Under the pieces are notes generated by a model. That model was not told the origin of the DNA. It did not search any database and worked only from the letters and a program-made list of their open reading frames with translations. Source: a virus. From it: a stretch of DNA of 64,000 nt. Shown piece by piece: positions 32,446 through 53,123 of the stretch (positions are counted from its first letter, which is position 1; every line of letters begins with the position of its first letter). The stretch covers positions 8,950-72,949 of IMG/VR virus record IMGVR_UViG_3300036884_000163; one strand, 5' to 3'. The position numbers were made by a program, and so were the translations under genes.

Positions 32446-33201
32446 TCAATACACCCTGCAGGACGATCCGCGATAAATCGTTACCAGATCGGCGACAGTC
32501 GGCGCTACAAGCTGAATGTTGAGCACAGTCCCGGAAGCGCTTGCACCCTCTACCGTTCCCCAGATATGAGCTGGCATCTGGGTTGCGGCACCGCCAAGCG
32601 TCCAAGCCACGCCAATCGCCTGCGATGATGTACTAGAAATCTGATCAACGATCGCGCCTGATTTTGAAGACCCCGTGGCCGTGCTCATGAGGTAGGAGGC
32701 GGTTATGTTGGTTGCTGCGTTAGTCGCCGTCTGTACGTCCCAATAGTTTGCGGTTGCCGCGGTAGCCTGCCCAACGATAAGATTGCAGTCAAAACTCCAA
32801 GTCGCAGCGACCAAGGGCAGAGTAAAACTTAGTGCGCCAATCGTCACCGGACTGGTGCAATCACTGACCGTCCCGGCCGTTCCGCACGTCCAGTCGGCCC
32901 CGGTAATTGTTTTCGTCTGCGGAAAGCTCCCGGCAAAGGCCGTCCACGCCGATCCACTGTATTGACAGGTAACAATGGTCGTTCCTGCCCCAGCGCCGCA
33001 GTCCGTGGCTGAGTTTCCGTTTGTGACCACGGCAATGGTGCCAGCCGTTTTTCCCGAAACACTGGCCAGTCCGGCAACGGTCGTAATCGGGATACCACCA
33101 CCGCCGCCACCTGGTTGAACCAAGGTCTGAGCAAAGACAGGGGCGGAGAACAGCAACGAGAGCACCAACAGCCTCAACGATTTCATGGGAAGTGTTCTCA
33201 T
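32446..33201 (-). CDS. signal-peptide-bearing beta-rich protein (fibre-tip-like)
   Basis: MKSLRLLVLSLLFSAPVFA-Q; Thr/Ala/Gly-rich; several close Cys pairs. Confidence 0.65.
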   Translation of the reverse strand: MRTLPMKSLRLLVLSLLFSAPVFAQTLVQPGGGGGGIPITTVAGLASVSGKTAGTIAVVTNGNSATDCGAGAGTTIVTCQYSGSAWTAFAGSFPQTKTITGADWTCGTAGTVSDCTSPVTIGALSFTLPLVAATWSFDCNLIVGQATAATANYWDVQTATNAATNITASYLMSTATGSSKSGAIVDQISSTSSQAIGVAWTLGGAATQMPAHIWGTVEGASASGTVLNIQLVAPTVADLVTIYRGSSCRVY

Positions 33202-33620
33202 CGGGATAGTTGCCGCCATTCGCGCATCTCAACATAAACCGCCGTCGCGCTCGCGCTTTTCACTTTCAAATACGGAGTTGCCGGACGAACGACTCCATCG
33301 GGATAAGTGAAACTGCCGAATCCGACATGCTCATTCTTTGCGATGGCGTCCCCGATCTGGATGATCTCGCCGGGAACCGCGGGATAGGTGTTAGCGTAGT
33401 TTTCGTCAGCTCGCTGGTATTCGAGTCCTTGCCCGGTAAAAGCTCCGCCAGTGTAGTTGCCGACGCCGCCTTGTGGACATTCCTGAACCTCGACATATCC
33501 GAATGATCCCTGCGAAGCGGAGAGCAGAACGAATGCGCCGGCACTTCCGTTGATAGTGACGATGGTGCGGATCGGGCTTGCCCGGTTCACCACACCTGCG
33601 GTATTGGTCGGATTGGCCAA
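33198..33620 (-). CDS. hypothetical structural protein
   Basis: GGAGG RBS, TTG start, beta-rich. Confidence 0.55.
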   Translation of the reverse strand: MANPTNTAGVVNRASPIRTIVTINGSAGAFVLLSASQGSFGYVEVQECPQGGVGNYTGGAFTGQGLEYQRADENYANTYPAVPGEIIQIGDAIAKNEHVGFGSFTYPDGVVRPATPYLKVKSASATAVYVEMREWRQLSR

Positions 33621-33621
33621 G

Positions 33622-34313: not shown

Positions 34314-34319
34314 CTCTAC

Positions 34320-34508: not shown

Positions 34509-34748
34509 GTCTCTCCCTACTATCCCCAGATTCGCAGCGCCAAGTCTGCCGCCTCAATCCATAGAAACAAGAGCGCCAGTCCGATGAACCAGCACAGGAG
34601 TTTCGCCGGTTTCGTCATCGAAGTATCAGCCACCCAGCGCCCATGATGTTCCTCATTCAAAAAAGTTCTCCCAGCAACCCGGTTCAGCTCTTCACGGCGA
34701 CTCCGCTTTCCTTAGCGGTGATCGGGAAGCTGGGAGGAATGCGCAACA

Positions 34749-36467
34749 TCAGTTCAAGACTTTTACTGACAAATTCATCAACTTCGGTACTGCAGTCGAT
34801 GACGTGGTTTGCACCATAATCACCTGCAAACGTGCTGGCCCCGCCAAGTTCAGCGAGCCAACTGCTGCCACGGTCATATTCGGCCCCACCGCAGGAGTTG
34901 CGCACGTAGTCAATGCACATTCCGCCAAGTAGCCATGACCCGCCTGAATGCTTCCGCCAGTTGCCGTAGCCGAAGCTACGGTCGTGGTGAAATCCTGGCA
35001 GAAGTCAAACTGCCCGGTAGTTCCAGTCGTCAACGTATTGGTTACGGAAGGCCCGCCAATCAGAACCGGCAACCCGGTGGTGACGTCCGACCCCTGCGCA
35101 TCCCACTCGAAGGCGATCTGCACAACCGTGCTTGCGCCCTGCGTGGACGAATAGGCGTAGCCGCAGACCTCAATGCTGCGGCCGACGTAGTTCATGAAGC
35201 CAGCAGGAAGCTCAACCGATCCCAAAGGCTGAGGAACGGTCGAGGCCGCCGCAGTGGCAATCGTGTTAGCTGGCAGCACTTTCACGACACCCGGTATTCC
35301 AGGAGTCGCTGCCGGCGCATAGGTATACGCGGTTCGCGCCTCACTGTTTGCTTGGTAGTAGCTGGCCGTTGAGATCAGACCGAGCTGGACACCTTGCGGC
35401 GAAGTTACCACTGGATACGCAGTAACGACCGCACCGGAACCGGTCTGGCCGTAACTGGCGTTGGTAATCGCGCAAGCGTACTTGCCAATCGACAGCAGAA
35501 TGGGACTCAAAGTGCACACCCCACTCGATACCGGCGCGACGTTTACTACCGTCGGCTGAGTGTAGAGCTTCACTTGATATTCGTTCGTAGCCGCGCCGCT
35601 CATCAGCCCGATATACGGAATCCATCCGCACGCTCCTGTAATGGCGGCGGGCGCCGTGAACTGGATTGCCGTGGTAGCCGTAGCTGTGAAGGAGTAATCG
35701 GCGGATTCCGGTCCTTCGTTGCCCATGCAATCGACTGGAGTGTAAGCAACGTGGATGGTTGCGGCGGTGTACGACGCGGAACCGGCCACGGTGAGACTCG
35801 AAAACGCCGTAGCGGACGTCAGCGCACCCGGAGCCGCGAACAGGCCAGCCGCCGGAGCGGGATTCCAGTACTGCCACTGCGGGCCGCGCTTATCGATAAT
35901 CTGAACACTGGGATAAACCAATGTTCCTAGTGGATACGCCGAGGGCAGGCTAGCCGCAGAATCAATCGTGACGATGCCTACACCCAGCGACAGTGCATCA
36001 TTCATCGCTTCTGCCACTCCGCCATCGCCGGACGTGATGGTCACTCCCTGCGCGTGCGAGTTGGCAAAGGTTGCAGTGAACGAGCAGAAATACGGTTGCG
36101 GGTAAGACGGGGTAGTGGCAGCCACCGACGGGAACGATGCGGCGGTTTCCGAAGCCACTGCTTCCGAGCTTGCTCCGTCCTGCACCTGGATGGGAACATT
36201 CAGCGCCTGAGCGCCCTGCGCCCAGAAAGGAAAGATTTGACGGTTGCCAGTGCCCACGTGGATAAAGCACGGAGCGATCTGAACGTTGTTCGCGCCGACC
36301 GCGATCGGACTGAGCGTGGTCACCGCCCACTTGCCATACTCCGAGACGATGATCTCGCCCGCGACCTGGTTAGATTGTGAAGGGTTGCCGGATTGAGCCA
36401 GCGCTGGAACTGTGCCAGCCACCAGCCCGCCGAGTAGAGTTAATGCCAGCGCAAGCTTTCGGATCAT
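34749..36467 (-). CDS. signal-peptide-bearing beta-rich protein
   Basis: MIRKLALALTLLGGLVAGTVPALA-Q; AGGAG RBS; FN3-like DCMGNEGPES segment. Confidence 0.7.
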   Translation of the reverse strand: MIRKLALALTLLGGLVAGTVPALAQSGNPSQSNQVAGEIIVSEYGKWAVTTLSPIAVGANNVQIAPCFIHVGTGNRQIFPFWAQGAQALNVPIQVQDGASSEAVASETAASFPSVAATTPSYPQPYFCSFTATFANSHAQGVTITSGDGGVAEAMNDALSLGVGIVTIDSAASLPSAYPLGTLVYPSVQIIDKRGPQWQYWNPAPAAGLFAAPGALTSATAFSSLTVAGSASYTAATIHVAYTPVDCMGNEGPESADYSFTATATTAIQFTAPAAITGACGWIPYIGLMSGAATNEYQVKLYTQPTVVNVAPVSSGVCTLSPILLSIGKYACAITNASYGQTGSGAVVTAYPVVTSPQGVQLGLISTASYYQANSEARTAYTYAPAATPGIPGVVKVLPANTIATAAASTVPQPLGSVELPAGFMNYVGRSIEVCGYAYSSTQGASTVVQIAFEWDAQGSDVTTGLPVLIGGPSVTNTLTTGTTGQFDFCQDFTTTVASATATGGSIQAGHGYLAECALTTCATPAVGPNMTVAAVGSLNLAGPARLQVIMVQTTSSTAVPKLMNLSVKVLN

Positions 36468-36689: not shown

Positions 36690-36717
36690 TCTCAGTCTCC
36701 TACTTGAACAGAATTGA

Positions 36718-37567: not shown

Positions 37568-37780
37568 TTACTTCTTGCCAAGGGTAACGACATGCACCGT
37601 CGCCCGCGCCGTCTTCTGGGCTGCTTTCTTTGTCGCCTTCGCAATCGGGATAGCGACATAGTTTCGTGTGACGACCGATCCCGCCCCGATGCCCAGACCG
37701 ATGTAGAGGCTTTTGCTGTCCAAGGTGCCAGCGAAGGCCACCGAGGACAGCAGAAGAAGAATGGTCGCTAGGCGCTTCAT
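37568..37780 (-). CDS. small exported/membrane protein
   Basis: MKRLATILLLLSSVAFA signal peptide. Confidence 0.55.
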   Translation of the reverse strand: MKRLATILLLLSSVAFAGTLDSKSLYIGLGIGAGSVVTRNYVAIPIAKATKKAAQKTARATVHVVTLGKK

Positions 37781-38355
37781 TTCACCTCGTACTGCTTGCC
37801 GAAGACTCCTGCTTTCGAATTGAAATCAGCCCGGAAGTGCTTTGCAGATTTCAGATTGTTAAACAGAGCCTTAACTTCGTCATGGCCGGTGACCTTACCC
37901 TGGACGACTGGGAGCAACGCGAGTAGGGAAGTAAGCTCGGCAGCAACGGCGTCAAACACGGCGACAATCTTTACCTGCGTGCCGGCGTCGGTAACGTGCA
38001 ATTCTGGCAGTAGGGCCGCCAGGTTGGTATTGATGACACCAATCAGGGTCTGGATCTCGACCAGGATGCCAGGTTTGGCGCCCGCAGCGGCGGCATTGTA
38101 CTGATCGATCAGCCCCTTGACAGTGAGTAAATCGGCTTGCGCCGCGGTTGACCATGCCTGTATCGCTGTCAGGGCTGTGGGCGGTATACCAAGACCGAAG
38201 GCTGCCAGGATGGCTAGCGCCGAGGTAATGGCTGGTCCCAGCAAAATGATGATGTTGGAGGCTTCCGTGGTCCATGCGGTTGTGCAGGCCGTCGCGAACA
38301 AAAGCAAGTTGAGCAGAGCGAACAACAAAAAGAATCTGACAGCAAAGCGTTTCAT
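37777..38355 (-). CDS. putative lipoprotein in the lysis region
   Basis: AAGGAGG RBS; MKRFAVRFFLLFALLNLLLFATA-C lipobox-like. Confidence 0.6.
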   Translation of the reverse strand: MKRFAVRFFLLFALLNLLLFATACTTAWTTEASNIIILLGPAITSALAILAAFGLGIPPTALTAIQAWSTAAQADLLTVKGLIDQYNAAAAGAKPGILVEIQTLIGVINTNLAALLPELHVTDAGTQVKIVAVFDAVAAELTSLLALLPVVQGKVTGHDEVKALFNNLKSAKHFRADFNSKAGVFGKQYEVK

Positions 38356-38399: not shown

Positions 38400-38906
38400 T
38401 TAAGGATTTGGAAAGTACGGAGCGTGCCAGTCCATTACTTCCCAGCATTGAACGTCTTTCCCGTCCCACAGCCACACGTCGTTGCCGTTCAAGTCGTGGG
38501 TATGAATTTGCTGCGTGCCATCCTTGAAAGTAATTTGGAGGTAAGGCCAGGGCGACTTCAGACCATCCCAAAATCCGGGTTGACCGTTGAAATTGAGCTT
38601 CAGCTCTTGCGCCTGCACTTTGTTGAACCACCTGATGCAGTTGTTTACGTGCCTCGCGTCGTCCGGCATGAGCGGAAAGAAGATTTTCATGTCGAGCGGT
38701 TGACCGCCGCGGTCCATGTCCATAACGTGATACTCGACGCCAATCTGCGGGATGGTAAGCGGCGTCCCCGCAGGATCGGGATTGACGACTTGAAATGTCG
38801 AGAATTGGACTGTATCCACGTTTCCGGTCACGGTGAGCAGAACGCCTTGAGCGGCGCACGCGACAGAGCCTGCAAAGAGCAAGATGCTTAGAATTGCATG
38901 TTTCAT
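38400..38906 (-). CDS. exported hypothetical protein
   Basis: MKHAILSILLFAGSVACAA-Q signal peptide. Confidence 0.55.
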   Translation of the reverse strand: MKHAILSILLFAGSVACAAQGVLLTVTGNVDTVQFSTFQVVNPDPAGTPLTIPQIGVEYHVMDMDRGGQPLDMKIFFPLMPDDARHVNNCIRWFNKVQAQELKLNFNGQPGFWDGLKSPWPYLQITFKDGTQQIHTHDLNGNDVWLWDGKDVQCWEVMDWHAPYFPNP

Positions 38907-39427
38907 GTTGTAGATCCTGTGTCAAACAATCCGGCTTCGATCCAGAGGCAACTCATCCCGGCGTTCAAGAATACAGACCGCGCCTCGTCATTGGGCGAAA
39001 CTGGGAACGTGCCCGTGAGCTGAAAGTGGGGGTCATCTTTCGGGCAGTGAACGAATTCATCTCCCGAGTACATCCCTAGACTCTCGCCGAGGGCAATGAT
39101 GCGCCGCCACACCGGACCCCAGATCGGATCATCCAGCTTCCACTCCGGTTTCCCCTGCGCGTCGAACGGCGCTACGTCCACGGCCATCCCGAAGTTGTGC
39201 CAAGAATGACCTGGCGGTGCGTTGGTCACGATCTTCAATGGATCAATAACCTTCCCGGTTTGGTCTCGGCCTTGAAGCCATATTTTTTGCTGGTCGTTCC
39301 AAGAGGCCAACCCACGGGTGACTCGTATGTCGATCCCCTCGTCCGCAAGCAGCGTAGCCTCTGCGCGAATCTTTCTCGCCAGCTGCGGATTCACGAGAGA
39401 TAGCCGAGTTTCGGAAGAGGGGTCCAT
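38903..39427 (-). CDS. endolysin, M15-family L-Ala-D-Glu peptidase
   Basis: VTNAPPGHSWHNFGMAVD (SxHxxGxAxD) and DDPHFQL. Confidence 0.9.
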   Translation of the reverse strand: MDPSSETRLSLVNPQLARKIRAEATLLADEGIDIRVTRGLASWNDQQKIWLQGRDQTGKVIDPLKIVTNAPPGHSWHNFGMAVDVAPFDAQGKPEWKLDDPIWGPVWRRIIALGESLGMYSGDEFVHCPKDDPHFQLTGTFPVSPNDEARSVFLNAGMSCLWIEAGLFDTGSTT

Positions 39428-39726
39428 TACCAAAACCAGCAAACCAGTGCCACCGCAACAACCGCGACGCCTGCACACAGCGACCACCATGGGAAGCCTA
39501 CCTCGGGAAGACGTTTCGGCCCGGCGCTGTAGTCATTGAACTCCGATTCGAGCGGATCCGGAGGTACCGTACAGACTTGGGGATTAATGGAGGCAACGGT
39601 AGCCGCATAGAGCAGGGGATTGATGGAGGCAACGGGGACCGTTTGACAAGTTCTCGCTTGTCTCGATCTGATTGGCGTGACTTTCGCCACCTTCGCCTTC
39701 GCTTTTTTCTTCGCGTTTTTCTTCAT
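39427..39726 (-). CDS. membrane-anchored basic protein
   Basis: Lys-rich N-terminus, C-terminal TM; coupled to the endolysin. Confidence 0.5.
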   Translation of the reverse strand: MKKNAKKKAKAKVAKVTPIRSRQARTCQTVPVASINPLLYAATVASINPQVCTVPPDPLESEFNDYSAGPKRLPEVGFPWWSLCAGVAVVAVALVCWFW

Positions 39727-39729: not shown

Positions 39730-40077
39730 TTACTTTCCCGCCGCCTCTACATTCGCGGCTTTTACCTCAACCTTGGCGGCTTCGACCAGCGCCGTGGCAT
39801 TGGGAATTCCCAGTGCCGTAGCCTGAGAAGCTGAAATTGTTTCGCCCTTAGCCAGCACTTGCGCCGGGCTGGAGTGGGTGTTGAAAGCCTTCGCGACAAT
39901 GCCCAGTCCAATCAGGCCAGTCGCCCCGATGATCAGCAATCCATGCGTCCATGCGGAAGGCAGAGTGAGTCCCAGGGCCGCGCAGGATTGCGTGACTAAT
40001 ACTGGGCCCCCAGCCAAGATGCCGAAGATTGTCGTTAAGTAACCTTGCAGAATTGTCGCACTCCAGAAAGATTTCAT
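39730..40077 (-). CDS. holin-like two-TM protein
   Basis: TTIFGILAG...IGLGIVAK; upstream of the endolysin; AAGGAG RBS. Confidence 0.55.
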   Translation of the reverse strand: MKSFWSATILQGYLTTIFGILAGGPVLVTQSCAALGLTLPSAWTHGLLIIGATGLIGLGIVAKAFNTHSSPAQVLAKGETISASQATALGIPNATALVEAAKVEVKAANVEAAGK

Positions 40078-41334: not shown

Positions 41335-41736
41335 CTATTTAGGTACGGCTTGCAAGTTAGATGCTGGGTTCGGAGGCAGAAACGGAATGAGAGCCTTCGC
41401 CTCGTTTGACGTTGCGCTCACACCCCCAGGGCCAGTTGCCGCAACCACGTAGTAATAAGTGGCTCCCTCAGTCAGTACGTTTCCAGTTCCCGATGTGTCC
41501 ACGTAGGTGAACTGGGTCACCGGAGGACAGGTTGGCTGGCCAGTTCCGCCGCAGATCGTTGCATACGGGCCGCCAGTTACGGTACCGCGCTGAACGATAA
41601 AGCCAGTCGCCTGACCTCCGTTGCCTTGAGTCCACGTCCATGATAACGTAACGGTGTGTTGAGCAAGCGCGAAGGTAGGGCTTGCGATGAACAAAACGGT
41701 GATAAACAAAACGGTGAATAACAGTAGTTGTTTCAT
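41335..41736 (-). CDS. signal-peptide-bearing FN3 domain protein
   Basis: MKQLLLF...PTFALA-Q; VTLSW...YYYVVAA...S..SNE FN3 pattern. Confidence 0.8.
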   Translation of the reverse strand: MKQLLLFTVLFITVLFIASPTFALAQHTVTLSWTWTQGNGGQATGFIVQRGTVTGGPYATICGGTGQPTCPPVTQFTYVDTSGTGNVLTEGATYYYVVAATGPGGVSATSNEAKALIPFLPPNPASNLQAVPK

Positions 41737-42014
41737 AATCTCCTTGATTTGCCAGCACCATAACTTGGACCCGTAATGATGCAATCGCAGCAATCATCAC
41801 TACCATTCTCACAGAGTGGCTCCACGAGCGGCATGAAGTCCTGGGGATGGCGGGTGACAATGGGCAGGGCCACGCACCATCCTACATCTTCAATCTGTAT
41901 GGTTAGATCGCAAGGTTTCAACTCGCCATCAAGAGCAGGTCCGCCTTCTACTCCTACCGGCTGATCCTGCCCCCATGCCATCGTTGCCAGCAAAAGTACC
42001 AACGCGTATTTCAT
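41733..42014 (-). CDS. small Cys-rich exported protein
   Basis: MKYALVLLLATMAWG-Q; GAGGAG RBS. Confidence 0.55.
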   Translation of the reverse strand: MKYALVLLLATMAWGQDQPVGVEGGPALDGELKPCDLTIQIEDVGWCVALPIVTRHPQDFMPLVEPLCENGSDDCCDCIITGPSYGAGKSRRL

Positions 42015-42027: not shown

Positions 42028-45000
42028 TTAGTGGTCCGGGTAAGGACCATGAGTTCCACAGTATGCTCCAGCTGGGCATACATAGCCGTTTTGTGTCATC
42101 GCAGTGTTCATTTGGGTTGTATCGACTCCCTGCGTTTTGTATATGCTTGTTGCGTCATAAGCAAGGTTTGAGAGTGTGAGATTATTCGCCCAAGGTAACG
42201 CCATCAGTGGGCAATTAAACGGGGCATTCCCATTAGGGCACGCGCCTGTGGGGTAGGTAACTGTAGGACTGCTACCCATAAACCCGGAGTACCCAAGACA
42301 GGTTCCGTCTGCTGTCGAAGTCGCGCAGTTAACCGTAGTCGGAAAGTGGTTGGTGCAGTCAGTGACTCCAGCGGGACAACCTACCACACTCCAATTACTC
42401 CCCGTACCTTGGTTCTCTAAAACATTACGATAGAACTGGAAGCTCGCTAGATCCCATGATTGAAATGCAGTCGTTCCTTCGCCCGCCGGAGCCGTGCTAT
42501 AAACATCCGAACTGGCTCCCGTGTCGGTAGTCGCGAAAACATTGTCATGGAAGAAGTTGGAAATCGGCGAGTGCCATGCGCCGAAATTGGTAATTGCGAA
42601 GTTGTTTGGAGAAAGAAACGTGTTGTGCTGGAGTGTTATAAAACGTCCTAATCCGGCACCATTATTGACAAGGCAGTTAGTTATTCCCGGTGCAGGCGCT
42701 GATGTTAAATTGTACTTGACAATCAATCCAATCGTCGCGGTTTCACCAATCGCATAGTTAGCCGTAGTTGATCCCGTCGCATAACCGTTGTCGGCGCAGG
42801 TAGTGTCTCCACCACCTATGTTATGCGCATAAACTCCATCACCGCCGGCAATGGCAATCATCTTCCCCGCCAGCGAGGCAAACGTGAGCGTGCCAGAACC
42901 GATTGCTGTATTACAGGCGGCAAGAGTGCTGCAAACCGTTCCTGGGGTTGATGCTGGGTCGTTGTAAACGATTGTTTGCCCTCCCGTGCCGTCGCTATAG
43001 CCTGCCCATTGTCCACTGGTCCCAGTCATGGCGAACGAACCGGCAGACAGTGCACCGGTATTTGGGCTAGTTCCTACGATGCTACTACCGACTATGATCG
43101 GACACGTCGTCCACGAAGCGCCGCTCGTAATACAAGTGCCAGCCGCAGAAGTGGAGAGTGTCGGGTCAAGACGGATACTGGCGTGCAAGATGGTAACGTT
43201 GTGACTGCTATCGACGGTAATACTCTGGATGTGGGCGGGACTCTTAATGTCGGTCTGGAAGGGGGAACAGTTCGCCGTTACCGTGTATAGGCTGGGCGAG
43301 ACGGTGACGTAGGACATGGCGCAGGTATAGTTATTCCCGTTGCCAGAAGTCCACTGCCACATATGACCGGGCGTGTTGAACTGGTTAGTATCCCCAATAT
43401 TGGTGAACAGGTTGTTGATGAAGTCGTTATGCCCCACGGGCAACGTGGTGCCACCGCCGTTTCCAGTGTTCATGTCGCCACGCCCAATCATCTGCACTGG
43501 ATTCGGAGCATTGCGTATCCAGTTGTTGCTTAATCGCACATTATCAAGGTAAGAGGCAGGTCGTCCTGTAGCCGGATCGAATACTCCTGCCGCTTGTCCG
43601 CCAGAAGTGGCTTCAACAAGCAGTAGGACGGCGAATCCACTCTGCCCGTCCGACCATGTATTTTCTATGATATTTCCATCCACCAAATTACGGTGCCCCT
43701 CTTTCGCCTCAAAACTATTCTTGACGGACCACGGGAAAGGACAAGTGTTATGCGATGCGTACTTGCTTTCGAACGTTCCGCATCCCCAAGGAGGAGCTGG
43801 ACTGTTAGCTGCACCGCCTGTAAGGAGACGCCAATTCAGGTCTCGGCCAAGATAGTTTTTACGGATTTCGTTATCCGACCCCGGTCCGCCATTTTGATCT
43901 GCTGGAGCGCCTCCAGAGAAAAGAGTTTCCGACCCTCCCTCCATCCAGTTGTTCACAATCTTCGTTGGTCCGTTATCGAAGCCGTAGGTGGCAGCCTTTG
44001 TTTCACTAGACCAATGATGAATCTTTTCAATATAACCATTCATTAGCCAGCCATTGTCGATGTTGAACGTAACGCCGGCAGATGAATCGTCTCCGCAGCC
44101 GGGGGTATAGTTTGACGGTGGATTGATTTGAAGATATTGGACCCCTGTTTGCGTTCCTGGTTGGCCGTTGATCGTCAGGACTGTGTTTGAGGTCGTCGGA
44201 TCGAAATCGGAAATCGTGTAGTTGGCTCCGCCGCTGATCGAGCCTCCGGCTCCTGAGGGAAGATTAGACATCGTGCCGCCGATGTTGATTGTCGAAACGG
44301 GACTGACGGTGAACGTGGGGCCGAAAAACGTATTGCCGAACGCGAGGGTGGGAACCGTGCTCGTAAGCGTGACCGAACCATGCGTGCCGTCAGTGTTCGC
44401 CGTAGTGACCGTTCCGGAGTTGTACCATGATAAACAATTTCCGGTCGCATCCACGCTAGATCCAGTCGTTGGTTGGCCAGAATCGCCGGGATCCCATCCA
44501 TGTACGTAGAAGCGGTCGAGTCCAACATAGTTCACCGACAAAGGTGACGCGGGTCGCGTAGCAAGAGGGTTACTTTGTCCGTGGAACAAAACGGGAACAG
44601 TAGAACCGTTCTTGCTTGGAGCCGCCCCTGGCTTCGTTGTGATCTCCACGTCGCGGATGACAATGTGATTGGTAACGTTGGTGGACGTGACCGGATCTAC
44701 GCTCGCCTCAATGCCCGTGTCACCAGTAGCAGGAACAACATCAAGCATCACCGTCCACATGCTCGCTTTGTCGTTGGGAAGCACTCCAGGATTTGTGTGT
44801 CCATCGCATCCGGGGTTACGCGCGCCACCAAAACCTGGAAGTCCGCGACCGCAGGCCATCACGCCAGCAGTGAGAGGAGTTGTTGATTCGAGCGTTAGGC
44901 ATTGCGTGGGTTCTACGCCAGTGCTGGGGTTAGCTTTGCCAGGAAGGCTGATGCAATTACCGTTGTGCACCCCTGCAAAGTCGGATGACGTACAGTGCAA

Positions 45001-46662
45001 CACGGTTCCGGATGGAATCTTGATACGCCACGATTTGTCCAAGTAACCGCCCCCAATGGTGTTTCCACCATTGTCACGCCAGTTATAGCAGGCGTCGAGT
45101 AATCCAGCGGGCGTGAGAGCATAAGCCGCGCCAAGGGCTTCGCCTGCAACGTTTGGCCCATTGTTGACCGACGTTCCAAGAGTCAGGTCAACGTAGTAAG
45201 TTCCCCCAGGCGGATTGCAGACGGTATCGTCTACCCATTTGATTGGGAGCGCAGCGCAAGCGAGCGGGATCCCAAAGCAATCGCCCGAAGAAGGGGGAGG
45301 AGCAGGGCTGCCTACAACCGCTACTAAGTTAATGCCTCCGCTACCCGAAACTGCCGCGAAGCGACCTACTCTTGTGCGTCCAGGGTTTGGCGCGACCTGG
45401 CCGGTGCCGGTAAGGCTAACGGTCTGAGTGCTGCCCCCAACGCCCCCGGAATCGTCCGTCACGGTCAAGGTTCCGGTGCGCGTTCCTGTGGTAGTCGGAG
45501 TGAAGGTCACTGAGATTGTGCAAGAAGGATTAAGGCCTCCTGTCCCGGATAACACACTAGGACAAGTATTCGTCTGGGCAAAGTCACCTGTGATCGAAAT
45601 GGAAGCGATATTCAAATTTGTCGTGCCGCCGTTTGTCAATGTAACCGTTTGACTGAAACTGGTGGTCCCGGTTTGCTGCGCAGCGTAAGTTAATGTATTA
45701 GGTGAAATCGTCGCATAAGAAGTAGTGATTACATATGCAGCGGACGCGACCGCAGAATCTGCAAGGCTGGCGGTCCCAGCCACGGCGTAGAGCGTTTCAC
45801 TTACGTTTACAGTTACGCTTCCTCCGTTTGCAAGCGGTGTGCCCGTTGTGCAATTGATACCGTCCCCAGTGGTCTGCGGATTGGACATTAGGCCATAGCA
45901 AATCAAAGCACCCGTTGTTGAGCTGGTAATCGCAACGCTCAGAGCGCTGGAGGACGTGCCTCCGCCCGGATAAAATGTCGGCGTAGCGGCATTGGAGATT
46001 TCCGTAAAAGCAATCGCGCTCAGGGCGGCTTGCGCGGTGTCCTGCGTCCATGCCGGCGCCGTGCCGCTCGACGTGTTGATGCTCGTGGCAAATCCTGAAT
46101 TGCCGCTGAAATCTTGGTATGTGCTGTAGGGAGACGATACGGCGGTAGGAATACTCCCCCAGATAATTTGATAGATCGCATCGCTCGATCCCGCCAATGT
46201 CAACGTGACTCCGGCGGGACTCGTCGTGTTCGTGGTCTGAGCCCTGGTTGCCGGACTTCCTGTATCCACTATGGCAGAGACGCCAGTGAAAGAAAGTTCC
46301 GTAGCCTCCACCCTCCATGCGAATGTAGTGGTGTCAGTTCGTGTCACCGTGATCGTTGTGGCTCCGCTCGTGCTCGATAGGGTGTAAGCGCAATCCGAAC
46401 CATTGGTTGTGCTCTGGACGCCATAGCAACCGGCGGGGTGAGTGTAAGTGCCTCCGCCGCTGACGCTGACAATCTGTTCCGCGTTGCTTAAAATGCCGAA
46501 CCCTATAACAATGACGTGACCCGATCCTGTACTCGCTACGGTTATGTCGCACGTCGCAGAGGTCGTGACGCAGGTGCCAGAGACAGCATGTTGCACCACG
46601 GCCCACGAGGCCCACGCGGGCGAGCCTATCAGCAGTATCAGCGAAAGTAGAAGTCGTCTCAT
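42028..46662 (-). CDS. giant exported protein: Ig-like domains plus right-handed beta-helix (depolymerase-like)
   Basis: MRRLLLSLILLIGSPAWA; AATPTF.PGGG chitobiase-C-like domain; VTLTNGG..DFAQTNTC..VTFTPT ASH-like domain; KIVNNWMEG, KNSFEAK, DGNIIENTW beta-helix repeats. Confidence 0.75.
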   Translation of the reverse strand: MRRLLLSLILLIGSPAWASWAVVQHAVSGTCVTTSATCDITVASTGSGHVIVIGFGILSNAEQIVSVSGGGTYTHPAGCYGVQSTTNGSDCAYTLSSTSGATTITVTRTDTTTFAWRVEATELSFTGVSAIVDTGSPATRAQTTNTTSPAGVTLTLAGSSDAIYQIIWGSIPTAVSSPYSTYQDFSGNSGFATSINTSSGTAPAWTQDTAQAALSAIAFTEISNAATPTFYPGGGTSSSALSVAITSSTTGALICYGLMSNPQTTGDGINCTTGTPLANGGSVTVNVSETLYAVAGTASLADSAVASAAYVITTSYATISPNTLTYAAQQTGTTSFSQTVTLTNGGTTNLNIASISITGDFAQTNTCPSVLSGTGGLNPSCTISVTFTPTTTGTRTGTLTVTDDSGGVGGSTQTVSLTGTGQVAPNPGRTRVGRFAAVSGSGGINLVAVVGSPAPPPSSGDCFGIPLACAALPIKWVDDTVCNPPGGTYYVDLTLGTSVNNGPNVAGEALGAAYALTPAGLLDACYNWRDNGGNTIGGGYLDKSWRIKIPSGTVLHCTSSDFAGVHNGNCISLPGKANPSTGVEPTQCLTLESTTPLTAGVMACGRGLPGFGGARNPGCDGHTNPGVLPNDKASMWTVMLDVVPATGDTGIEASVDPVTSTNVTNHIVIRDVEITTKPGAAPSKNGSTVPVLFHGQSNPLATRPASPLSVNYVGLDRFYVHGWDPGDSGQPTTGSSVDATGNCLSWYNSGTVTTANTDGTHGSVTLTSTVPTLAFGNTFFGPTFTVSPVSTINIGGTMSNLPSGAGGSISGGANYTISDFDPTTSNTVLTINGQPGTQTGVQYLQINPPSNYTPGCGDDSSAGVTFNIDNGWLMNGYIEKIHHWSSETKAATYGFDNGPTKIVNNWMEGGSETLFSGGAPADQNGGPGSDNEIRKNYLGRDLNWRLLTGGAANSPAPPWGCGTFESKYASHNTCPFPWSVKNSFEAKEGHRNLVDGNIIENTWSDGQSGFAVLLLVEATSGGQAAGVFDPATGRPASYLDNVRLSNNWIRNAPNPVQMIGRGDMNTGNGGGTTLPVGHNDFINNLFTNIGDTNQFNTPGHMWQWTSGNGNNYTCAMSYVTVSPSLYTVTANCSPFQTDIKSPAHIQSITVDSSHNVTILHASIRLDPTLSTSAAGTCITSGASWTTCPIIVGSSIVGTSPNTGALSAGSFAMTGTSGQWAGYSDGTGGQTIVYNDPASTPGTVCSTLAACNTAIGSGTLTFASLAGKMIAIAGGDGVYAHNIGGGDTTCADNGYATGSTTANYAIGETATIGLIVKYNLTSAPAPGITNCLVNNGAGLGRFITLQHNTFLSPNNFAITNFGAWHSPISNFFHDNVFATTDTGASSDVYSTAPAGEGTTAFQSWDLASFQFYRNVLENQGTGSNWSVVGCPAGVTDCTNHFPTTVNCATSTADGTCLGYSGFMGSSPTVTYPTGACPNGNAPFNCPLMALPWANNLTLSNLAYDATSIYKTQGVDTTQMNTAMTQNGYVCPAGAYCGTHGPYPDH

Positions 46663-47354
46663 TATGGTTTCAACTCGATTGCGGCCGCTTTCCAAACGCC
46701 AGTAGTTTGAGTCGCCGTACAATCTATCGTGGCCGGCGAAGCGGACGTGTTATCGACGAGCACTCCGTTATTTGCGGTAGTGGTCACCGCCTGACGTGGA
46801 GTTCCAACCGTCACCGTCATTACGTGGGTCGCACCGTCACCCAGTCCGCAGACTATGTAATCGTTGCTATAGGATGTAGCCACGGCAATATCCGCCGTCG
46901 TGCTACTTCCATTGTTGACGCTTCCCGAACCCACCACGGCAGTAACCCCGGAATACCCTTCTTCCACTACAAAGCCGGTTCTCGCCGTAGTCCAGGATAA
47001 GATATAACTCGTGACTCCAGAAGGAACCGATGCTTGATAGAGGGACGCAAGAGGAGAGACTGCCGGACCCACGCTTAGAGCATTGCTCAGATTATCGACC
47101 CCACTCAGCGCGGTTATTGAGCTGCTGGTGTAAAGATAGATAATCGAAGTGCTTCCAGTGGCAGGCGACGGAGAGGGTGTGACTGTTACTGTTGAGTTTG
47201 AGGTAAACGTGGCCGCATATCCGTTGATCGCAGGCGTGATTGTTCCACCACCGCCCGCCACCGGTGGTTTAGAACCCACCACGCTTAGCCACTGAAAGCC
47301 AGATCCAATTGCAATCAGCACTGCCAACGAAATGATGATTCCAAGTTTTCTCAT
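46662..47354 (-). CDS. exported beta-sandwich protein
   Basis: MRKLGIIISLAVLIAIGSG; domain resembles the N-terminal domain of 42028-46662. Confidence 0.65.
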   Translation of the reverse strand: MRKLGIIISLAVLIAIGSGFQWLSVVGSKPPVAGGGGTITPAINGYAATFTSNSTVTVTPSPSPATGSTSIIYLYTSSSITALSGVDNLSNALSVGPAVSPLASLYQASVPSGVTSYILSWTTARTGFVVEEGYSGVTAVVGSGSVNNGSSTTADIAVATSYSNDYIVCGLGDGATHVMTVTVGTPRQAVTTTANNGVLVDNTSASPATIDCTATQTTGVWKAAAIELKP

Positions 47355-47355: not shown

Positions 47356-50300
47356 TTAGCTGCTCGTCGATGTGCCGGCTAAGGTCGTACATTTCAGACT
47401 GTAGGCCGAAGCACCAGTCTGAAACGAGAAACAGGAGAATGAGTTCCCAATTCCTGGAGTGGCGAAGATGATATGAGTCACTCCGGATGCAGAACCATCG
47501 AGGTATATATTCGCTGCGGTCGTGCCATTTGTGACCGAATTATATTGCCAAGCATAAGCTCCGGGAGCCGTGCCGACGATCATAATAAAATTCATGCCCG
47601 CCGCTGGCGTCGGACCCGTGATCGCTACCGCAGCCGTCGTCTGACCATAGTTCCATGCCATCGCATTCGAAAGTTGCGCTGCGGTCGGACTGCAAGCCGT
47701 ATGACAGTCGATGGATTGTGGAGTGACAGATGCGGTAGTCAACGTAGGGGAGGTCGAAGGCGCTTTGGCGTTGAGTTGTGTTTGAATGCTAGATGTAGGA
47801 TCGACATAACCCATGACCGTCGAAGTCACGCCGTCCACCGTTTTGTTGGTTAAGACCTGTGTGTCAGTCGTTCCAACGATTGTTCCCGTGGGGGCCGCGA
47901 CGGACGAGGTAATCGTATTCGCTGTTGCCGCGACTGGGATCTGCGTTGCCGTCATTCCAGAGAGTCCGCTGCTGCCGGCCGCGCCGAATGGCCCCACGGT
48001 TCCACCATTGATTCGGGCATACATTCCAGCAGTAGTGGTCCATAAGTCTCCGTTTACTGGGCTAGTAGGTGCGGAACCATGCGGAACATTTAATCCAGTA
48101 GTCGTAGTAGTAGATGCAGCCGTTACAACTTCTGCGGTGTGGGTTTGCACCGCTGTCCAAGTCGCCGCCCGACCGAGAAACCCAGCACAACCAAAATTAT
48201 GCACTACAGCGGATCCATCGCTGTACTCGGCGCTAAAACAATGGTTCGTTGAATCAAACGTGGTTTCGTGCGTAAAAATTGGCAATGTCGTGTCTAGTGC
48301 GCCTTCGGTGGCCAAGTCGTAGGGAGGAGTTCCACCTGAATTTCCTGTGATTGGCGTACCCTCAGAAAACGAAGTCGTGGAGGCTAGGGTCGAGAAAAAG
48401 CCTGGCGCCGGAGTTGTTCCACCGATTGTTGGCGGCGCAGCGTAGCTTTGCGTTGCGAAGGTTCCAAACGCCACATTGTTGGTTTTGGTGCAGGTAGCGA
48501 CGCCCGTGCTGGCGAGCGTGCAGTCTTGGCTCAGGGCCGTTGGCGCATAAGCGGTTCCACCAGAATTTCCAACCGCCAGGTAGCCTGCCCCCGGCGCGGT
48601 GTTTGGCATGACTGCGGCCTTCGTCTGCGCGTCGTTGGTTACGCTGCTCAGGCCGACAGACGTTTTCGTAACCGAGATCGCGCCCGCCGTATTTAGGACG
48701 CTGGTGCCATCCGGCTTGACGCCGCCCAAAACAGATGCAGTGGCCGTCGGCAGCGAGTAGAGCGCCGCGAAGGCCCCTGTGTTCAAAGCTCCCGACGCTG
48801 ACGGTTTCTGGCCGTGCGTTCCGTCTGCAACCATTGGCACCTCTGCGGTTGTTCCCGGATCAGAGGAGGTCGCCGTGCCCGCTGCAGAACCAAACACCGT
48901 TAGCGTCGTTGCCCAGGCCGTGCAAGGCGTTCCTATACAAACTGGAACTCCTGGTGTGGTGGGCCACGTCATCGCGCTACCGGAGGATCCGCAGCCTGTT
49001 CCGGTGGATAAAATCACGCCTGAAGAAACATTGAGGCAACCATTCGACAAGCTGGCTAGCGTAACACTCTGATCGAACTTCGCCGGAACGTTGAACTCTT
49101 TCAGCGATGCGGTCAACCTTTCCAGCCAGTTTGCGGTTACGCCATCGCCAACCTGCGCGATGTAATTCGTAATTGACACCGGGGCTCCAAACGCAAGCTG
49201 CCCCGAACTCAGTCCCACTCCGGCGCTCGGCACATCCGTGCCAATCCACGTATCGTTCGCACTTGCTGGTGGACGATACCCCCACGTTGCTTGAGTCAGG
49301 GCAGGCTGGGAATCAATCAGTGTGATGATATGGTGTGGATTTAGGCCCGGGGTAAACAGGGAAAAATTCAGTCTTCCTTTTGCTAAGACCGAAAAGGAAT
49401 TATGGGGGTTATTGTCCTGCAAGAACGTGGCGGTGGCGTTAGGGATGCTATTATTCGTGGTATTGATACTCGACAAACAAACTGTAGCTCCTCCTGGCGA
49501 CGCTGCTCCGTAGACCGAGCACCGATTCGCAACCTGAATCGGATCTCCATACAATCCAATTCCTACGACGTTCCCTACTTCCACATCTACCTTAACAGTT
49601 TTGTTGACCGCTACTATTGAACCGGGCCAGAAGTTTAATTGTCCTGCATAATTCCCAGCCTTAATCGTGTATGCGGAAGTGGATGACGATCCTGTATCAG
49701 TGTAAGTACAAACCAACGTCCCCGAACAAGCCGTGGCTTGAGATAGGTTGTGCGCCACATATCCGCACGTCCCACCCGATCCACCGGGGCATCCGCCATT
49801 GTAGGGATAGACTGCACCGACTCCAACCGGAGTTGTCATGCGGATTACGTCATAGGTGATCGTGTCAGTTCCGTTTGCCACTCGCGGCCAACTAACCGGA
49901 ATTGAATCGCTTCCGGTAGAACTCCAATTGAGAATCTGCATCGGAGAGGTTTGCGTATTGGCAGTCGTATCATTGGCTACGATGTAATAGGTGTATGGCG
50001 TAGCGCCAGCTGCCGTTCCGAACACCGTCCCTGCGGTTAAAACAGAGCTTGTCGTCAACTGAAAAGTGCTGGAATTGCTTGCAGTGACTGACCAAGTACC
50101 GTTGTACCCTGATGGAGTCATTCCGGTTATGGCTACGTTGTTTGTTCCTGTGCCGGGATTCAGTGTTGACGTTATTGTGATCGTGTAAGTAGGGCCACCA
50201 CCAGATTCACTGGCTGCCGTGATCGCGGCACTGGAGACGCCAGCCTGAAACGCACCCTCAGGTGCCGGTCCGGCAATCTGAAAATTTGCATTTAGGGTCG

Positions 50301-52746
50301 ATTCTCCGGCAATCAAACCAGCAATTCCAAGACCAGGAAAGGGAGACTCGGCAGCGGAGCACGAGGATGGATAGCTACTACAAGGCGGATTGGCGGCAGC
50401 GCTGCTCTCGGAGTAGATGTTCTTAAGGTAGGCTCCCTGATAGTTTCCGGTGGAGTTCGATGAATACACTTGCCACAACGAGGTGGCCTGAATGACTGTG
50501 TTCTCGATGTACAACCCGTTCGAATTATAGACGGTTATTCCTAGTTGTTGAGAAGTGATGTTCGAGTCGCGCAGCGTGATGACCGAAGCGTGATTATGCG
50601 CTATGTTCATCTGGCCACCCGAGAAGACATAGGAACCGATCCACGTTGCACCACCGTTTAATCCCGCGCTATTGTTATTGAAGTGGTCAACGGTCGCGTT
50701 CTCGTCATCCCAGAAATCGAAGAAATTATTGAATGCACCGTTCTCTCCTACAAGGTCGCCAGAAATATCGTTAAAGTGTGTACCGTTTGCATTGTCCAAA
50801 ATCGCTTCATAAGCTAAGGCAACGACTCCGGGAGTATTCATGGAAACGGGCGCTCCGGGATGTGCGTAAGTATAGGTCACACTCGACGGCACGGACGTAA
50901 TAACGGCATCTCCCCAATAAGTTGAGCTGTCCGTAAACATCTGCGTAACTATGTCACCCGGACGAAATCCGTGGGCGGATGCCGTGGTGATTGTAGCAAT
51001 GCCGCCAGAGAAGGATGTGTTGGTAATGTTTACGCCAGCATATGCGGCGATAGATGAGTGATCGGTTGGAGTACGGAAACTGATGCCTTGAATGGTGTTA
51101 CTTACAAAATCATTGGCGTTTACGCGATCGCCGACCTGGATACAAGCTCCACGCCCAACGCAATTCAGGGAGGTTCCATATCCGCTCAGTGTAGACTGGT
51201 TAGCGTGGACGAAGATCGTGCCGTAAACGTTGTAGTTGTTTATTGAATGCGGATAGCCTGGACCGTTCGCAGGAATTGTTACATTGCATTGGGCGTTCTT
51301 GTAGTACGTTGGGTCGGTACCGCAAGCGACGTTGACCGTTTCCTGAATGCCAGAAGAGGCCGAACCGATTGTGTAGGCAGAGTGTGAGAAGAAGGGCGTG
51401 AAGAGAATGGTCCCTCCACTCCCCGCGGTATAAGTGCCACCCGTCACGTTCACTGCTTCGCTATTTGAACCATCCGTGATGTAGACCTGATAGCCAGCGC
51501 CCGAACTCACGTCAATGCCAACGATTCCCGAAGCAAGAGTCACAGTTGCCGCCGTATTCGCCGTGAGCGCCGTAGTCGAAGATTTCGACCAGTTCATCGC
51601 CGATGTCACGTAGGCGGTGGGGGGATTAGGACATTCCACACTGACATTCGGAGCCGACTGCTGAAACAGGCAGTTAAAATAGCCAGTCTGCGGTGCGGGC
51701 GTTGCAGCGTTCAGGTTGGCCGCCGACTGCGATACGCTGTTTACGCTGAAGGGGAAGCTACCAGGCGAAGGAACTGGGATCCATGTCTGGTTGCCAGCAA
51801 GAATCGTAGCCGAGTTCGCCGCGCCACTGCCTAGTTGAGCCGTGGGCACATACCCACCGACCAGGCTCGCCTTGGCGGCTAAACCGGTGTCCACATATCC
51901 CTTGTTGCTTGCGTGGTTAATCGCCGTAGGGTTCCCTGGCAGCGTGATCGGACCTGTGACCGTTCCCCCGACGAGCGATAGATAAGAGCCGCCCGAGCCA
52001 GGGGCGAACTGGCTAGCGAGATTCCCTACCGGGCACCCAAGCGAGATGTCGCCAGTCGTATCCGTAGCGAAGTTGCAGTTCAGAAATCCCGCGCCAAAGA
52101 GTGGCAGAACGTTGTTGAAGTTCGCCACCGGGACGGTGCTCCCAAGCGGGACGCTGTTCACGCTGATGTTCGCCGCCCCTACGACACCGACGCCCAATCC
52201 GATGACGGTCGCCTGCGAGAAGTCGAAGAGGCCTTTAAAGAATGCCGAGGTGCCGGTTGGCTGCGTCCAAGTCTGGCTGTTGATGGGATTGCCGAAGAGT
52301 TGATAGAAGCCGGGAGGCGGGGGAATCACGGTGCACGGCTGCGTCAGGGCAGGATTGAAGGTGTCGCCGCTCGTCAGGCAGTAATACTCCGGCTGTCCGC
52401 CGGCTTGGTTGCTCGCTTTGTACTCGGTTACGAGCCACTGGGTAGAGTTCACGTTCCCACAAAGGATTTGGTCTTGCCCGTAAACACTACCAGCGATTAG
52501 ACCTGTGGTCGGATTAGGACGCATATCGAACTGCTGCGCGACGATGGCAAAGGCATTTCCTTGTACCTGGGGGACGTTATTTCCACAGTTCCACAGTTCG
52601 AAGTGGAGATAACCGGTCTTTTGAATGTTGCCCTGGCCGTCGGTAAGCGTTGCTGTGACGGTGACGCCGGGAGCTTGAGCGTAGGCGCACACTCCAAGCG
52701 TTAGCAGGGTGATAGCCGATAACGCCTTGAGTAACAATGCACGCAT
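47356..52746 (-). CDS. tail fibre / tailspike-like protein with N-terminal signal peptide (ORF extends to 52899)
   Basis: Fibre motifs GGTVTGPITLPGNP...NKGYVD, LPTATASVLGGVK, VGLSSVTN, TQVLTNKT, SSIQTQLNAK; central beta-helix. Confidence 0.75.
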   Translation of the reverse strand: MRALLLKALSAITLLTLGVCAYAQAPGVTVTATLTDGQGNIQKTGYLHFELWNCGNNVPQVQGNAFAIVAQQFDMRPNPTTGLIAGSVYGQDQILCGNVNSTQWLVTEYKASNQAGGQPEYYCLTSGDTFNPALTQPCTVIPPPPGFYQLFGNPINSQTWTQPTGTSAFFKGLFDFSQATVIGLGVGVVGAANISVNSVPLGSTVPVANFNNVLPLFGAGFLNCNFATDTTGDISLGCPVGNLASQFAPGSGGSYLSLVGGTVTGPITLPGNPTAINHASNKGYVDTGLAAKASLVGGYVPTAQLGSGAANSATILAGNQTWIPVPSPGSFPFSVNSVSQSAANLNAATPAPQTGYFNCLFQQSAPNVSVECPNPPTAYVTSAMNWSKSSTTALTANTAATVTLASGIVGIDVSSGAGYQVYITDGSNSEAVNVTGGTYTAGSGGTILFTPFFSHSAYTIGSASSGIQETVNVACGTDPTYYKNAQCNVTIPANGPGYPHSINNYNVYGTIFVHANQSTLSGYGTSLNCVGRGACIQVGDRVNANDFVSNTIQGISFRTPTDHSSIAAYAGVNITNTSFSGGIATITTASAHGFRPGDIVTQMFTDSSTYWGDAVITSVPSSVTYTYAHPGAPVSMNTPGVVALAYEAILDNANGTHFNDISGDLVGENGAFNNFFDFWDDENATVDHFNNNSAGLNGGATWIGSYVFSGGQMNIAHNHASVITLRDSNITSQQLGITVYNSNGLYIENTVIQATSLWQVYSSNSTGNYQGAYLKNIYSESSAAANPPCSSYPSSCSAAESPFPGLGIAGLIAGESTLNANFQIAGPAPEGAFQAGVSSAAITAASESGGGPTYTITITSTLNPGTGTNNVAITGMTPSGYNGTWSVTASNSSTFQLTTSSVLTAGTVFGTAAGATPYTYYIVANDTTANTQTSPMQILNWSSTGSDSIPVSWPRVANGTDTITYDVIRMTTPVGVGAVYPYNGGCPGGSGGTCGYVAHNLSQATACSGTLVCTYTDTGSSSTSAYTIKAGNYAGQLNFWPGSIVAVNKTVKVDVEVGNVVGIGLYGDPIQVANRCSVYGAASPGGATVCLSSINTTNNSIPNATATFLQDNNPHNSFSVLAKGRLNFSLFTPGLNPHHIITLIDSQPALTQATWGYRPPASANDTWIGTDVPSAGVGLSSGQLAFGAPVSITNYIAQVGDGVTANWLERLTASLKEFNVPAKFDQSVTLASLSNGCLNVSSGVILSTGTGCGSSGSAMTWPTTPGVPVCIGTPCTAWATTLTVFGSAAGTATSSDPGTTAEVPMVADGTHGQKPSASGALNTGAFAALYSLPTATASVLGGVKPDGTSVLNTAGAISVTKTSVGLSSVTNDAQTKAAVMPNTAPGAGYLAVGNSGGTAYAPTALSQDCTLASTGVATCTKTNNVAFGTFATQSYAAPPTIGGTTPAPGFFSTLASTTSFSEGTPITGNSGGTPPYDLATEGALDTTLPIFTHETTFDSTNHCFSAEYSDGSAVVHNFGCAGFLGRAATWTAVQTHTAEVVTAASTTTTTGLNVPHGSAPTSPVNGDLWTTTAGMYARINGGTVGPFGAAGSSGLSGMTATQIPVAATANTITSSVAAPTGTIVGTTDTQVLTNKTVDGVTSTVMGYVDPTSSIQTQLNAKAPSTSPTLTTASVTPQSIDCHTACSPTAAQLSNAMAWNYGQTTAAVAITGPTPAAGMNFIMIVGTAPGAYAWQYNSVTNGTTAANIYLDGSASGVTHIIFATPGIGNSFSCFSFQTGASAYSLKCTTLAGTSTSS

Positions 52747-52898
52747 TCTAATGAGGCGCCCATGCGCCCGAGCTTCCACCGAACGACACCGCGCGCAGCA
52801 GAAGACACCAGTCGTTTGCCCTGGCGAGCCCTCTGTGTCCACGTGACCGAACAATCGGCACAACACAATGAGCGCTAACGCCTTGAGAGTAGGTCGCA

Positions 52899-53123
52899 TC
52901 AGTCTTCCGCGTGCTCGAGCACCACGACGTTCTCCGCCTTCAGGCCCTTCTCGCCTTTGGTAACATCAAACTCCACCACGTCACCCTCGGTGAGTTTGCG
53001 GTAGCCCTCGGCTTGGATGGCGCTAAAGTGAACAAAAGCTTCTCGGTTGCTGCCATCATCCAAAATCAGAAAGCCGTATCCCTTAGCGTTGTTAAACCAC
53101 TTGCAAATGCCTCGTTCTGCCAT
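52899..53123 (-). CDS. cold-shock protein (CspA family)
   Basis: KWFNNAKGYGF (RNP1), AFVHFSAIQ (RNP2). Confidence 0.93.
   Translation of the reverse strand: MAERGICKWFNNAKGYGFLILDDGSNREAFVHFSAIQAEGYRKLTEGDVVEFDVTKGEKGLKAENVVVLEHAED

Follow-up and report, generated by a model that had tools for sequence, protein, structure and literature searches.

Conserved export leaders on large fibre-like proteins of a podovirus-like phage and a possible assembly of its particle in two compartments

In the accepted picture, tailed phages assemble wholly in the cytoplasm. The late region of the phage held in IMG/VR record IMGVR_UViG_3300036884_000163 raises the question of whether part of its particle may be made elsewhere. 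The record has 72,949 bases and is rated complete; the window analysed here is the whole stretch formed by its bases 8950-72949 (64 kb), whose numbering is used below for the late genes, all of which lie on the minus strand. An earlier note on this stretch had pointed to ten late open reading frames (ORFs) with predicted signal peptides, many of them with Gln right after the cleavage site, and had proposed that this phage exports its fibre and decoration proteins through Sec, that they oxidise in the periplasm and that they join the particles at lysis. The scenario that we examine here is that the lineage builds its particle in two compartments, its entire receptor-binding apparatus being exported, disulfide-bonded and attached only at lysis; in our judgement, its chances of being right fall slightly short of even.

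All ten starts proved real: they open true ORFs on the minus strand, display the features of an export leader within their first 15-25 residues and pass a strict leader test. This test is a rule-based heuristic of our own and asks for a basic n-region, an uncharged hydrophobic h-region of ~8-16 residues and small residues at positions -1 and -3. From the highest coordinate downwards, the ten minus-strand genes encode a 1796-aa fibre-like protein (47356..52746; AYA/Q, the slash marking the predicted cut), a 230-aa Thr/Ser-rich protein (46662..47354) whose N-terminal hydrophobic segment is a signal peptide or signal anchor with a weak cleavage site, and perhaps an anchor, a 1544-aa protein (42028..46662; AWA/S), a 93-aa protein (41733..42014; AWG/Q), a 133-aa protein (41335..41736; ALA/Q), a 168-aa protein (38400..38906; ACA/A), a 192-aa lipoprotein with the lipobox LLLFATA/C (37777..38355), a 70-aa protein (37568..37780; AFA/G), a 572-aa protein (34749..36467; ALA/Q) and a 251-aa protein (32446..33201; VFA/Q). 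Five of these ten leaders carry Gln at +1. The strict test is passed by 11 of the 49 curated minus-strand genes, namely the ten named starts and a 62-aa ORF (31797-31985, minus strand) that is probably a false positive, and by a single one of 189 non-gene ORFs of at least 60 aa. As the earlier note had it, the core head, tail and ejection proteins are leaderless: the 24 genes for packaging, head, tail and ejection that lie from 5984 to 31792 all fail the test. When the N-termini of the ten proteins were shuffled, 1 to 57 of 300 trials passed for each. An AGGAG-like site or an overlap with the previous stop precedes six of the ten starts, and neither is present at 33201 and 52746. An upstream ATG at 52899 was considered as the start of the 1796-aa gene and rejected in favour of 52746, because the alignments of homologues begin at residue 57-60 of the long form. 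A promoter and terminator scan of 31000-50900 gave counts equal to those of shuffles (12 against 11.0 and 19 against 19.4). On these sequence features, the prediction that the ten ORFs are substrates of the host Sec system, nine of them for signal peptidase I or as a signal anchor and one for signal peptidase II, is well supported.

The leaders were then compared with those of the relatives of the phage (the latter designated G000). Capsid relatives at 61-70% identity are found in four viral records (G001, G002, G004 and G005) and, in decayed form, on a contig of an Acidobacteriaceae metagenome-assembled genome (MAG; G003). A fifth viral relative, G007, complete with terminal repeats, was found through the fibre domain described below, fragments of which also lie in five further Terriglobia or Acidobacteriaceae MAG contigs. 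Since relatives and fibre-domain fragments sit in such contigs, the host is very probably an acidobacterium of the family Acidobacteriaceae and this lineage of podovirus-like (short-tailed) phages is probably temperate. The syntenic homologues in all five viral relatives keep leaders, the sequences of which differ. Among ORFs of at least 150 aa, the strict test recognises leaders in 9/35 in G001, 8/34 in G002, 6/37 in G005, 7/34 in G007 and 7/44 in G000 itself, where two in the early region look spurious; these leader-like ORFs total about 4200-5650 residues per genome. In G004, a GC-rich fragment on which the ORF caller fails (1/22), the leader of the fibre was recognised by eye. The homologues of the 192-aa lipoprotein likewise keep the lipobox (STVA/C in G001, LSG/C in G002 and LAG/C in G007).

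A profile of the fibre N-domain, that is, the domain after the leader of the 1796-aa protein, was searched in 1.84 billion representatives; at E<=0.001, it recovered 499 clusters, of which 90 reached 1e-30 or better. Among the 150 of these 499 that were listed, the domain is always N-terminal, in proteins of 60-2296 aa; 56 of the 76 listed members of at least 300 aa pass a looser leader test, and the 20 that do not are, by eye, mostly truncated or started upstream of an evident leader. The family of the 572-aa protein, with members in G001, G002, G005 and G007, comprises 142 homologues at E<=0.001, the best 120 of which span 325-616 aa; 103 of these 120 pass the strict test. Signal conservation in homologues, which had been suggested as a check on the original claim, is thereby confirmed, and judging from it the leaders are a fixed trait of this phage lineage. 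In one Acidobacteriaceae MAG sample (~375 kb), 50 of 340 ORFs were leader-like and Gln was the commonest residue at +1 (13 of the 50). Therefore, the Gln of the phage leaders appears to be the host's own style.

The leader-bearing proteins are also rich in Cys, with 100 Cys in 5049 residues (1.98%) as opposed to 93 in 9739 (0.95%) in the other 39 proteins, where zinc-binding proteins account for much of it; Cys is absent from the 1046-, 421-, 406- and 189-aa ejection-like proteins. The five Cys motifs quoted in the earlier note (CVTTSATC, CSTLAAC, CIGTPC, CHTAC and CALTTC) are all present. In the 1796-aa protein, 15 of the 16 sequential pairs are no more than 20 residues apart (random mean 4.9; none of 2000 random placements reached 15); by the same test, the spacing in the 1544-, 572- and 251-aa proteins is not significant (P 0.22-0.52). 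A further regularity concerns the number of Cys. In G000, G001, G002, G005 and G007, the leader-bearing, low-charge ORFs of at least 250 aa have an even Cys count after the leader in 25 of 26 cases, versus 40 of 75 in other ORFs (binomial 8e-7, Fisher 3e-5), the latter set coming from a crude greedy caller and surely including some that are not genes. Because the leaders are conserved and follow the host's style, including Gln at +1, and because the Cys counts are even, the export and the disulfide-dependent folding predicted for these proteins are strongly supported, as far as sequence can tell.

Are these exported proteins fibres? All five relatives keep the first ~190 residues past the leader of the 1796-aa protein (36-42% identity), but the C-terminal rest differs and the lengths of the homologues range from 570 to 1499 aa. 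Over its last 160 residues, the 251-aa protein has 51% identity with the C-terminal end of a leader-bearing protein of G007 (1464 aa), the N-terminus of which is in turn common with that of an 850-aa protein of G001. Over 41 aa (residues 1552-1592), the 1796-aa protein is 68% identical to an annotated, leaderless tail fibre of the Stenotrophomonas phage StenR_269, and a 30-residue stretch matches the fibre of Rhizobium phage Paso. Two relatives have leader-bearing genes inside their tail modules: in G002, a 590-aa gene overlaps the end of the nozzle gene and, in G001, a 507-aa gene whose product has an N-terminus in common with that 590-aa protein lies just before the adaptor gene. Full-length members of the N-domain family are on viral contigs; of the five MAG loci, the three that were opened held short leaderless pieces only. 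The conserved N-terminus, the swapped C-termini and the fibre motif thus support the view that the large proteins are built like receptor-binding proteins. The fibre nature claimed for them finds support in this modular build and in the 41-residue motif but not in any family model, and for four of the five large proteins fibre identity is putative.

The earlier note had also seen no long fibre without a signal. This holds insofar as the 1046-, 421- and 406-aa proteins, long and leaderless, resemble ejection proteins in being charged and having no Cys, but not for a nozzle-like core tail protein of 1267 aa (16897-20700, minus strand), which is long, leaderless and of low charge and is the only other receptor-binding candidate. 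It is collinear with homologues in all the relatives (33-45% identity among them); in the ESM Atlas, it finds viral look-alike clusters only, none of them named. A prediction of the complex between the adaptor, residues 1-480 of the nozzle-like protein and the fibre N-domain scored 0.28 where the mark was 0.32 and counts neither way.

These observations can be assembled into the following scenario. The five large proteins (1796, 1544, 572, 251 and 230 aa) would be fibre- or spike-like host-recognition proteins. They would cross the inner membrane unfolded, lose their leader, often exposing Gln as host proteins do, and then fold and form disulfides in the periplasm. The particle, built in the cytoplasm, would meet them only once the holin and the endolysin breach the envelope, and they would then dock on it, using the N-terminal domains that are conserved. 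The 93- and 133-aa proteins may be helpers of the large ones, and the three proteins next to the endolysin (168 aa, 70 aa and the 192-aa lipoprotein) would be lysis or envelope accessories. We infer the actual export and cleavage, the periplasmic formation of disulfides, the docking and its timing. Attachment is considered because no receptor-binding candidate was found except the nozzle-like protein, because leader-bearing genes lie in the tail modules of two relatives and because Cellulophaga phage phi18:3 offers an analogue; the exported genes moreover take ~13 kb, or 18% of the genome, which also speaks for it. Whether the large leader-bearing proteins join the particle after their export is, in our assessment, an evenly balanced question.

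The analogue is a cultured podovirus of the Pachyviridae (NC_021794.1). Its genes for gp085, gp086 and gp087 are consecutive, large and located just upstream of the lysis genes, and Gln occupies +1 behind the Sec-type leader of each product; in the annotation of the record, all three count as structural or tail proteins of the virion, "based on experimental MS/MS proteomics analysis". The host of phi18:3 is, however, a member of the Bacteroidota, and gp085-087 are Cys-poor (0, 1 and 3). The sole BLAST link between the two phages concerns the 62-aa ORF mentioned above, an acidic protein with a match to phrog_1411 that shares 51% identity, over 37 aa, with a small phi18:3 ORF. Host-style signal peptidase I leaders exposing Gln are also known from prophage proteins of Porphyromonas gingivalis, where five genes of unknown function are read as host-surface modifiers (PMC10367356); here, the leaders are on all the fibre-like giants, and the phage is very probably one of Acidobacteriaceae. 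The paper that describes this Gln rule for Bacteroidetes, the Q-rule, contains no occurrence of Acidobacteria (PMC5837995), and the words "signal peptide" and "mass spectrometry" are absent from the paper on the first cultured Acidobacteriota phages (PMC11924767). In tblastn searches of cultured phages, no match was found for the capsid protein and the 572-aa protein (among 50,697 phage records), nor for the 1544-aa protein or the N-terminus of the 1796-aa protein.

Other systems share single aspects of the scenario. T7 gp17 and P22 gp9 combine an N-terminal docking domain with exchangeable distal parts, but they are leaderless and held to fold and attach in the cytoplasm. In a figure legend of one preprint, the P22 tailspike is expected to lack a signal peptide because export is not needed for it (10.64898/2026.09.13.751334). 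The StenR_269 fibre, for all its likeness over the 41-residue motif, has no signal peptide either. Phage lysis and exclusion proteins such as the spanins Rz/Rz1, the SAR endolysins, T5 Llp and Cor are exported, and exported proteins beside the endolysin (spanins, exclusion lipoproteins) are usual in phages of diderm bacteria. Such Sec or lipoprotein signals beside the endolysin fit the 168-, 192- and 70-aa ORFs, but proteins of this type are small and do not account for leaders on fibre-like proteins of 250 to 1800 residues. Some virion parts do pass through the cytoplasmic membrane or mature outside it: the tail of Acidianus two-tailed virus grows extracellularly. The filamentous phage coat proteins pIII and pVIII are Sec-dependent (PMC4823517). 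Yet filamentous phages are non-tailed and membrane-assembled and Acidianus two-tailed virus is archaeal; neither is a host-lysing tailed phage.

Several points weigh against attachment after export. No tailed phage is known to add fibres after their export. At E<=0.001, no PHROG or Pfam tail-fibre family was matched by the five large proteins (the best curated match, obtained after splitting the proteins, is phrog_26941 "tail protein", with E 0.028 over 23 residues), and sequence and profile searches of the PDB came back empty for the 1796-, 1544- and 1267-aa proteins and for two profiles, one of them that of the 572-aa family. That family is constant in length, unlike swapped receptor-binding proteins; the 572-aa protein has no usable match in the ESM Atlas. 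The 1544-aa protein, with 37 Cys, is the lone odd count in the parity analysis, and disulfides could also arise after release, so that parity by itself does not locate the folding in the periplasm. Receptor binding could be the work of the nozzle-like protein alone. With regard to the analogue, BLAST and profile comparison detect no homology of the capsid, adaptor or nozzle proteins of phi18:3 to this phage, and secreted proteins that co-purify with the particles can also turn up in MS/MS.

An alternative that we regard as distinctly possible, if somewhat doubtful, is that the proteins are exported yet never part of the particle, acting unattached in the periplasm, on the surface or after secretion. 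Their targets might be the exopolysaccharide or envelope of the host, which they would cut or bind, easing release and preventing progeny from sticking to debris, or they might mask the receptor (superinfection exclusion) or alter the surface of the lysogen. Leaders and disulfide parity would suit any exported protein, and such roles would agree with a lineage that looks temperate, with a decayed relative in an Acidobacteriaceae MAG contig, with the fixed length of the 572-aa family, with the match of the 1544-aa protein to phrog_18474 "hydrolase" and with the position of the fibre-like cluster, which lies away from the tail genes, begins after a cold-shock gene and has a 400-nt gap following it. 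There are also precedents in the P. gingivalis prophage proteins, read as surface modifiers (PMC10367356), and among the CAZymes of soil prophages, 5% of which carry signal peptides (PMC13507307). Nevertheless, accessory genes would be a costly use of 18% of the genome, no carbohydrate-active enzyme family was matched, and a conserved N-domain with swapped C-termini is the hallmark of receptor-binding proteins docked on a particle. Free proteins would also leave the nozzle-like protein as sole receptor-binding protein, and they sit uneasily with the finding of full-length N-domain members on viral contigs only (short leaderless pieces alone occurring in the three MAG loci opened) and with the leader-bearing genes that G001 and G002 have within their tail modules.

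Two further explanations seem to us very improbable. The hydrophobic N-termini may not be working export signals at all, owing to mis-called starts or some other purpose, in which case the proteins would fold in the cytoplasm and their Cys be oxidised after release. Disulfides can indeed form outside the cell, our leader calls rest on our own heuristic and not on SignalP, and the starts at 33201 and 52746 have no clear Shine-Dalgarno site. However, a leader is kept in hundreds of diverged homologues despite sequence drift, the alignments of homologues begin at it, and no conserved in-frame Met is found just behind it; the leaders moreover copy the host style down to Gln at +1, one lipobox is kept in three relatives, and shuffled N-termini pass the test at the rates given above. 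It is just as hard to credit that the large proteins are polymorphic secreted toxins or bacteriocin-like weapons, with a trafficking N-domain, a variable C-terminal payload and small immunity genes downstream. The conserved N-terminus, the variable C-terminus and the small membrane or exported ORFs after each giant gene would be expected in that case, but, in contrast to the domains of enzyme toxins, the C-termini abound in Thr, Ser and Gly and have almost no charge (K+R+E 3-5%); matches to toxin families were not found, and a motif is common with a tail fibre. This reading was rejected on the composition and the absence of toxin domains.

The individual genes of the region all lie on the minus strand. 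The fibre-like cluster opens with a cold-shock gene (52899-53123; CSD, 6.4e-25), the stop of which overlaps the unused ATG upstream of the 1796-aa ORF; a copy 58% identical lies elsewhere on the G003 MAG contig. In the 1796-aa protein, the leader is followed by the conserved N-domain (~residues 25-200) and a Thr/Ser/Gly-rich body, with 32 Cys in the mature form. The 230-aa gene starts just after the stop of the 1796-aa gene and its own stop overlaps the next start; its product has no PHROG or Pfam match. The 1544-aa protein has an Ig-like segment at ~residues 290-425, with weak matches to Pfam Cep192_D4/ASH and, over the same stretch, the phrog_18474 match (7e-13), and partial leader-bearing homologues of 1492 and 1462 aa in G001 and G002. 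The small proteins that follow have 6 Cys (93 aa, with an AGGAG-like site upstream of the gene) and 2 Cys (133 aa), and the 572-aa and 251-aa proteins have 10 and 6, respectively. A 140-aa conserved leaderless protein (33198..33620) overlaps the start of the variable leader-bearing gene in every relative, as it does that of the 251-aa gene here.

Between these genes lies the lysis cassette. A 115-aa protein with multiple hydrophobic segments (39730..40077) appears holin-like by its position and has no family match. The endolysin, of peptidase M15 / VanY type (38903..39490), has no export signal; its true start is probably Met22, as the alignment of homologues begins at residue 22. The 168-aa gene comes directly after it and has no homologue found in G001, G002 or G007. 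The 192-aa lipoprotein, two genes after the endolysin, has a second hydrophobic stretch and is larger than a usual o-spanin; a search for spanins beside the endolysin identified no clear i-spanin partner and no family match. The notion of "decoration" proteins finds no support, the products of the genes starting at 38906, 38355 and 37780 being more simply explained as lysis or envelope accessories. Nor is the region the uniform late fibre block that had been supposed, since it holds, in addition to the lysis cassette, a LuxR-type regulator (36909-37346) and an endonuclease VII gene (33807-34313). The former belongs to a group at 36537-37346, between the lysis genes and the 572-aa gene, in which two small membrane proteins, one of them a DUF3309 peptide, accompany this LuxR/GerE regulator with its two helix-turn-helix stretches; the group looks like host-derived cargo.

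In the rest of the genome, the large terminase (6340-8040), an adaptor-like protein (21163-21963; leaderless, with a weak SU10_adaptor match), the capsid protein (24912-26204) and a portal-sized protein (28272-30779) are all encoded on the minus strand, and no tRNA genes were found. Directly upstream of the portal gene, a papain-family gene (30783-31538, minus strand; Peptidase_C1, 9.8e-9; phrog_16701 "peptidase"), for which BLAST finds no homologue in G001, G002 or G007, is unusual for a phage protease in both place and type. HNH_3 endonuclease genes occur on the opposite strand at 1364-1933 and 24336-24824, the latter wedged between the capsid and head-completion genes, where G001 and G002 have similar opposite-strand ORFs. 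In the relatives, a single giant protein, leaderless and 2055-4155 aa long, is encoded in the interval from the ejection-like genes to the small terminase (G001 50176-56874, G002 9050-15217, G004 5987-17812, G005 22143-34610 and G007 54673-64218). Its place is taken here by 8807-10072 and 11040-14180 (minus strand); the 421-aa protein matches residues 278-600 of the giant and the 1046-aa protein, Ala-rich and Cys-free, is unrelated to it. The early region contains an IS1595-family transposase (57650-58624, plus strand; DDE_Tnp_IS1595, 1.6e-41) and, in the early region of the phage record, a PIN-domain protein (59751-60362, plus strand) and a TacA-like antitoxin (63029-63253, plus strand) are encoded. 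In the Acidobacteriaceae MAG (G003:C24:74998-81537), the related phage is reduced to capsid, scaffold-like and portal genes plus one small gene; the portal is split over three frames with one TGA, as in a decayed prophage or through long-read sequencing errors.

Exported phage proteins and modular tail fibres are both known already. A search of the open-access literature (PMC and bioRxiv) brought up no paper on tailed phages whose tail fibres are exported by Sec, so the two-compartment route is described for no tailed phage in the literature searched and would be a new assembly route if attachment after export holds. In that case, fibre attachment would be confined to the short interval of lysis or later, the fitness of the phage would be tied to the Sec system, signal peptidase and disulfide machinery of its host, and the fibres could bear periplasmic modifications. 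The annotation of soil phages would shift as well, since the receptor-binding proteins on which host prediction depends may be those that now appear as leader-bearing "secreted proteins". Should the exported proteins never be on the particle, the devotion of about a fifth of the genome to exported, disulfide-rich giants would still point to an as yet unstudied action of these phages on the envelope or exopolysaccharide of their hosts.

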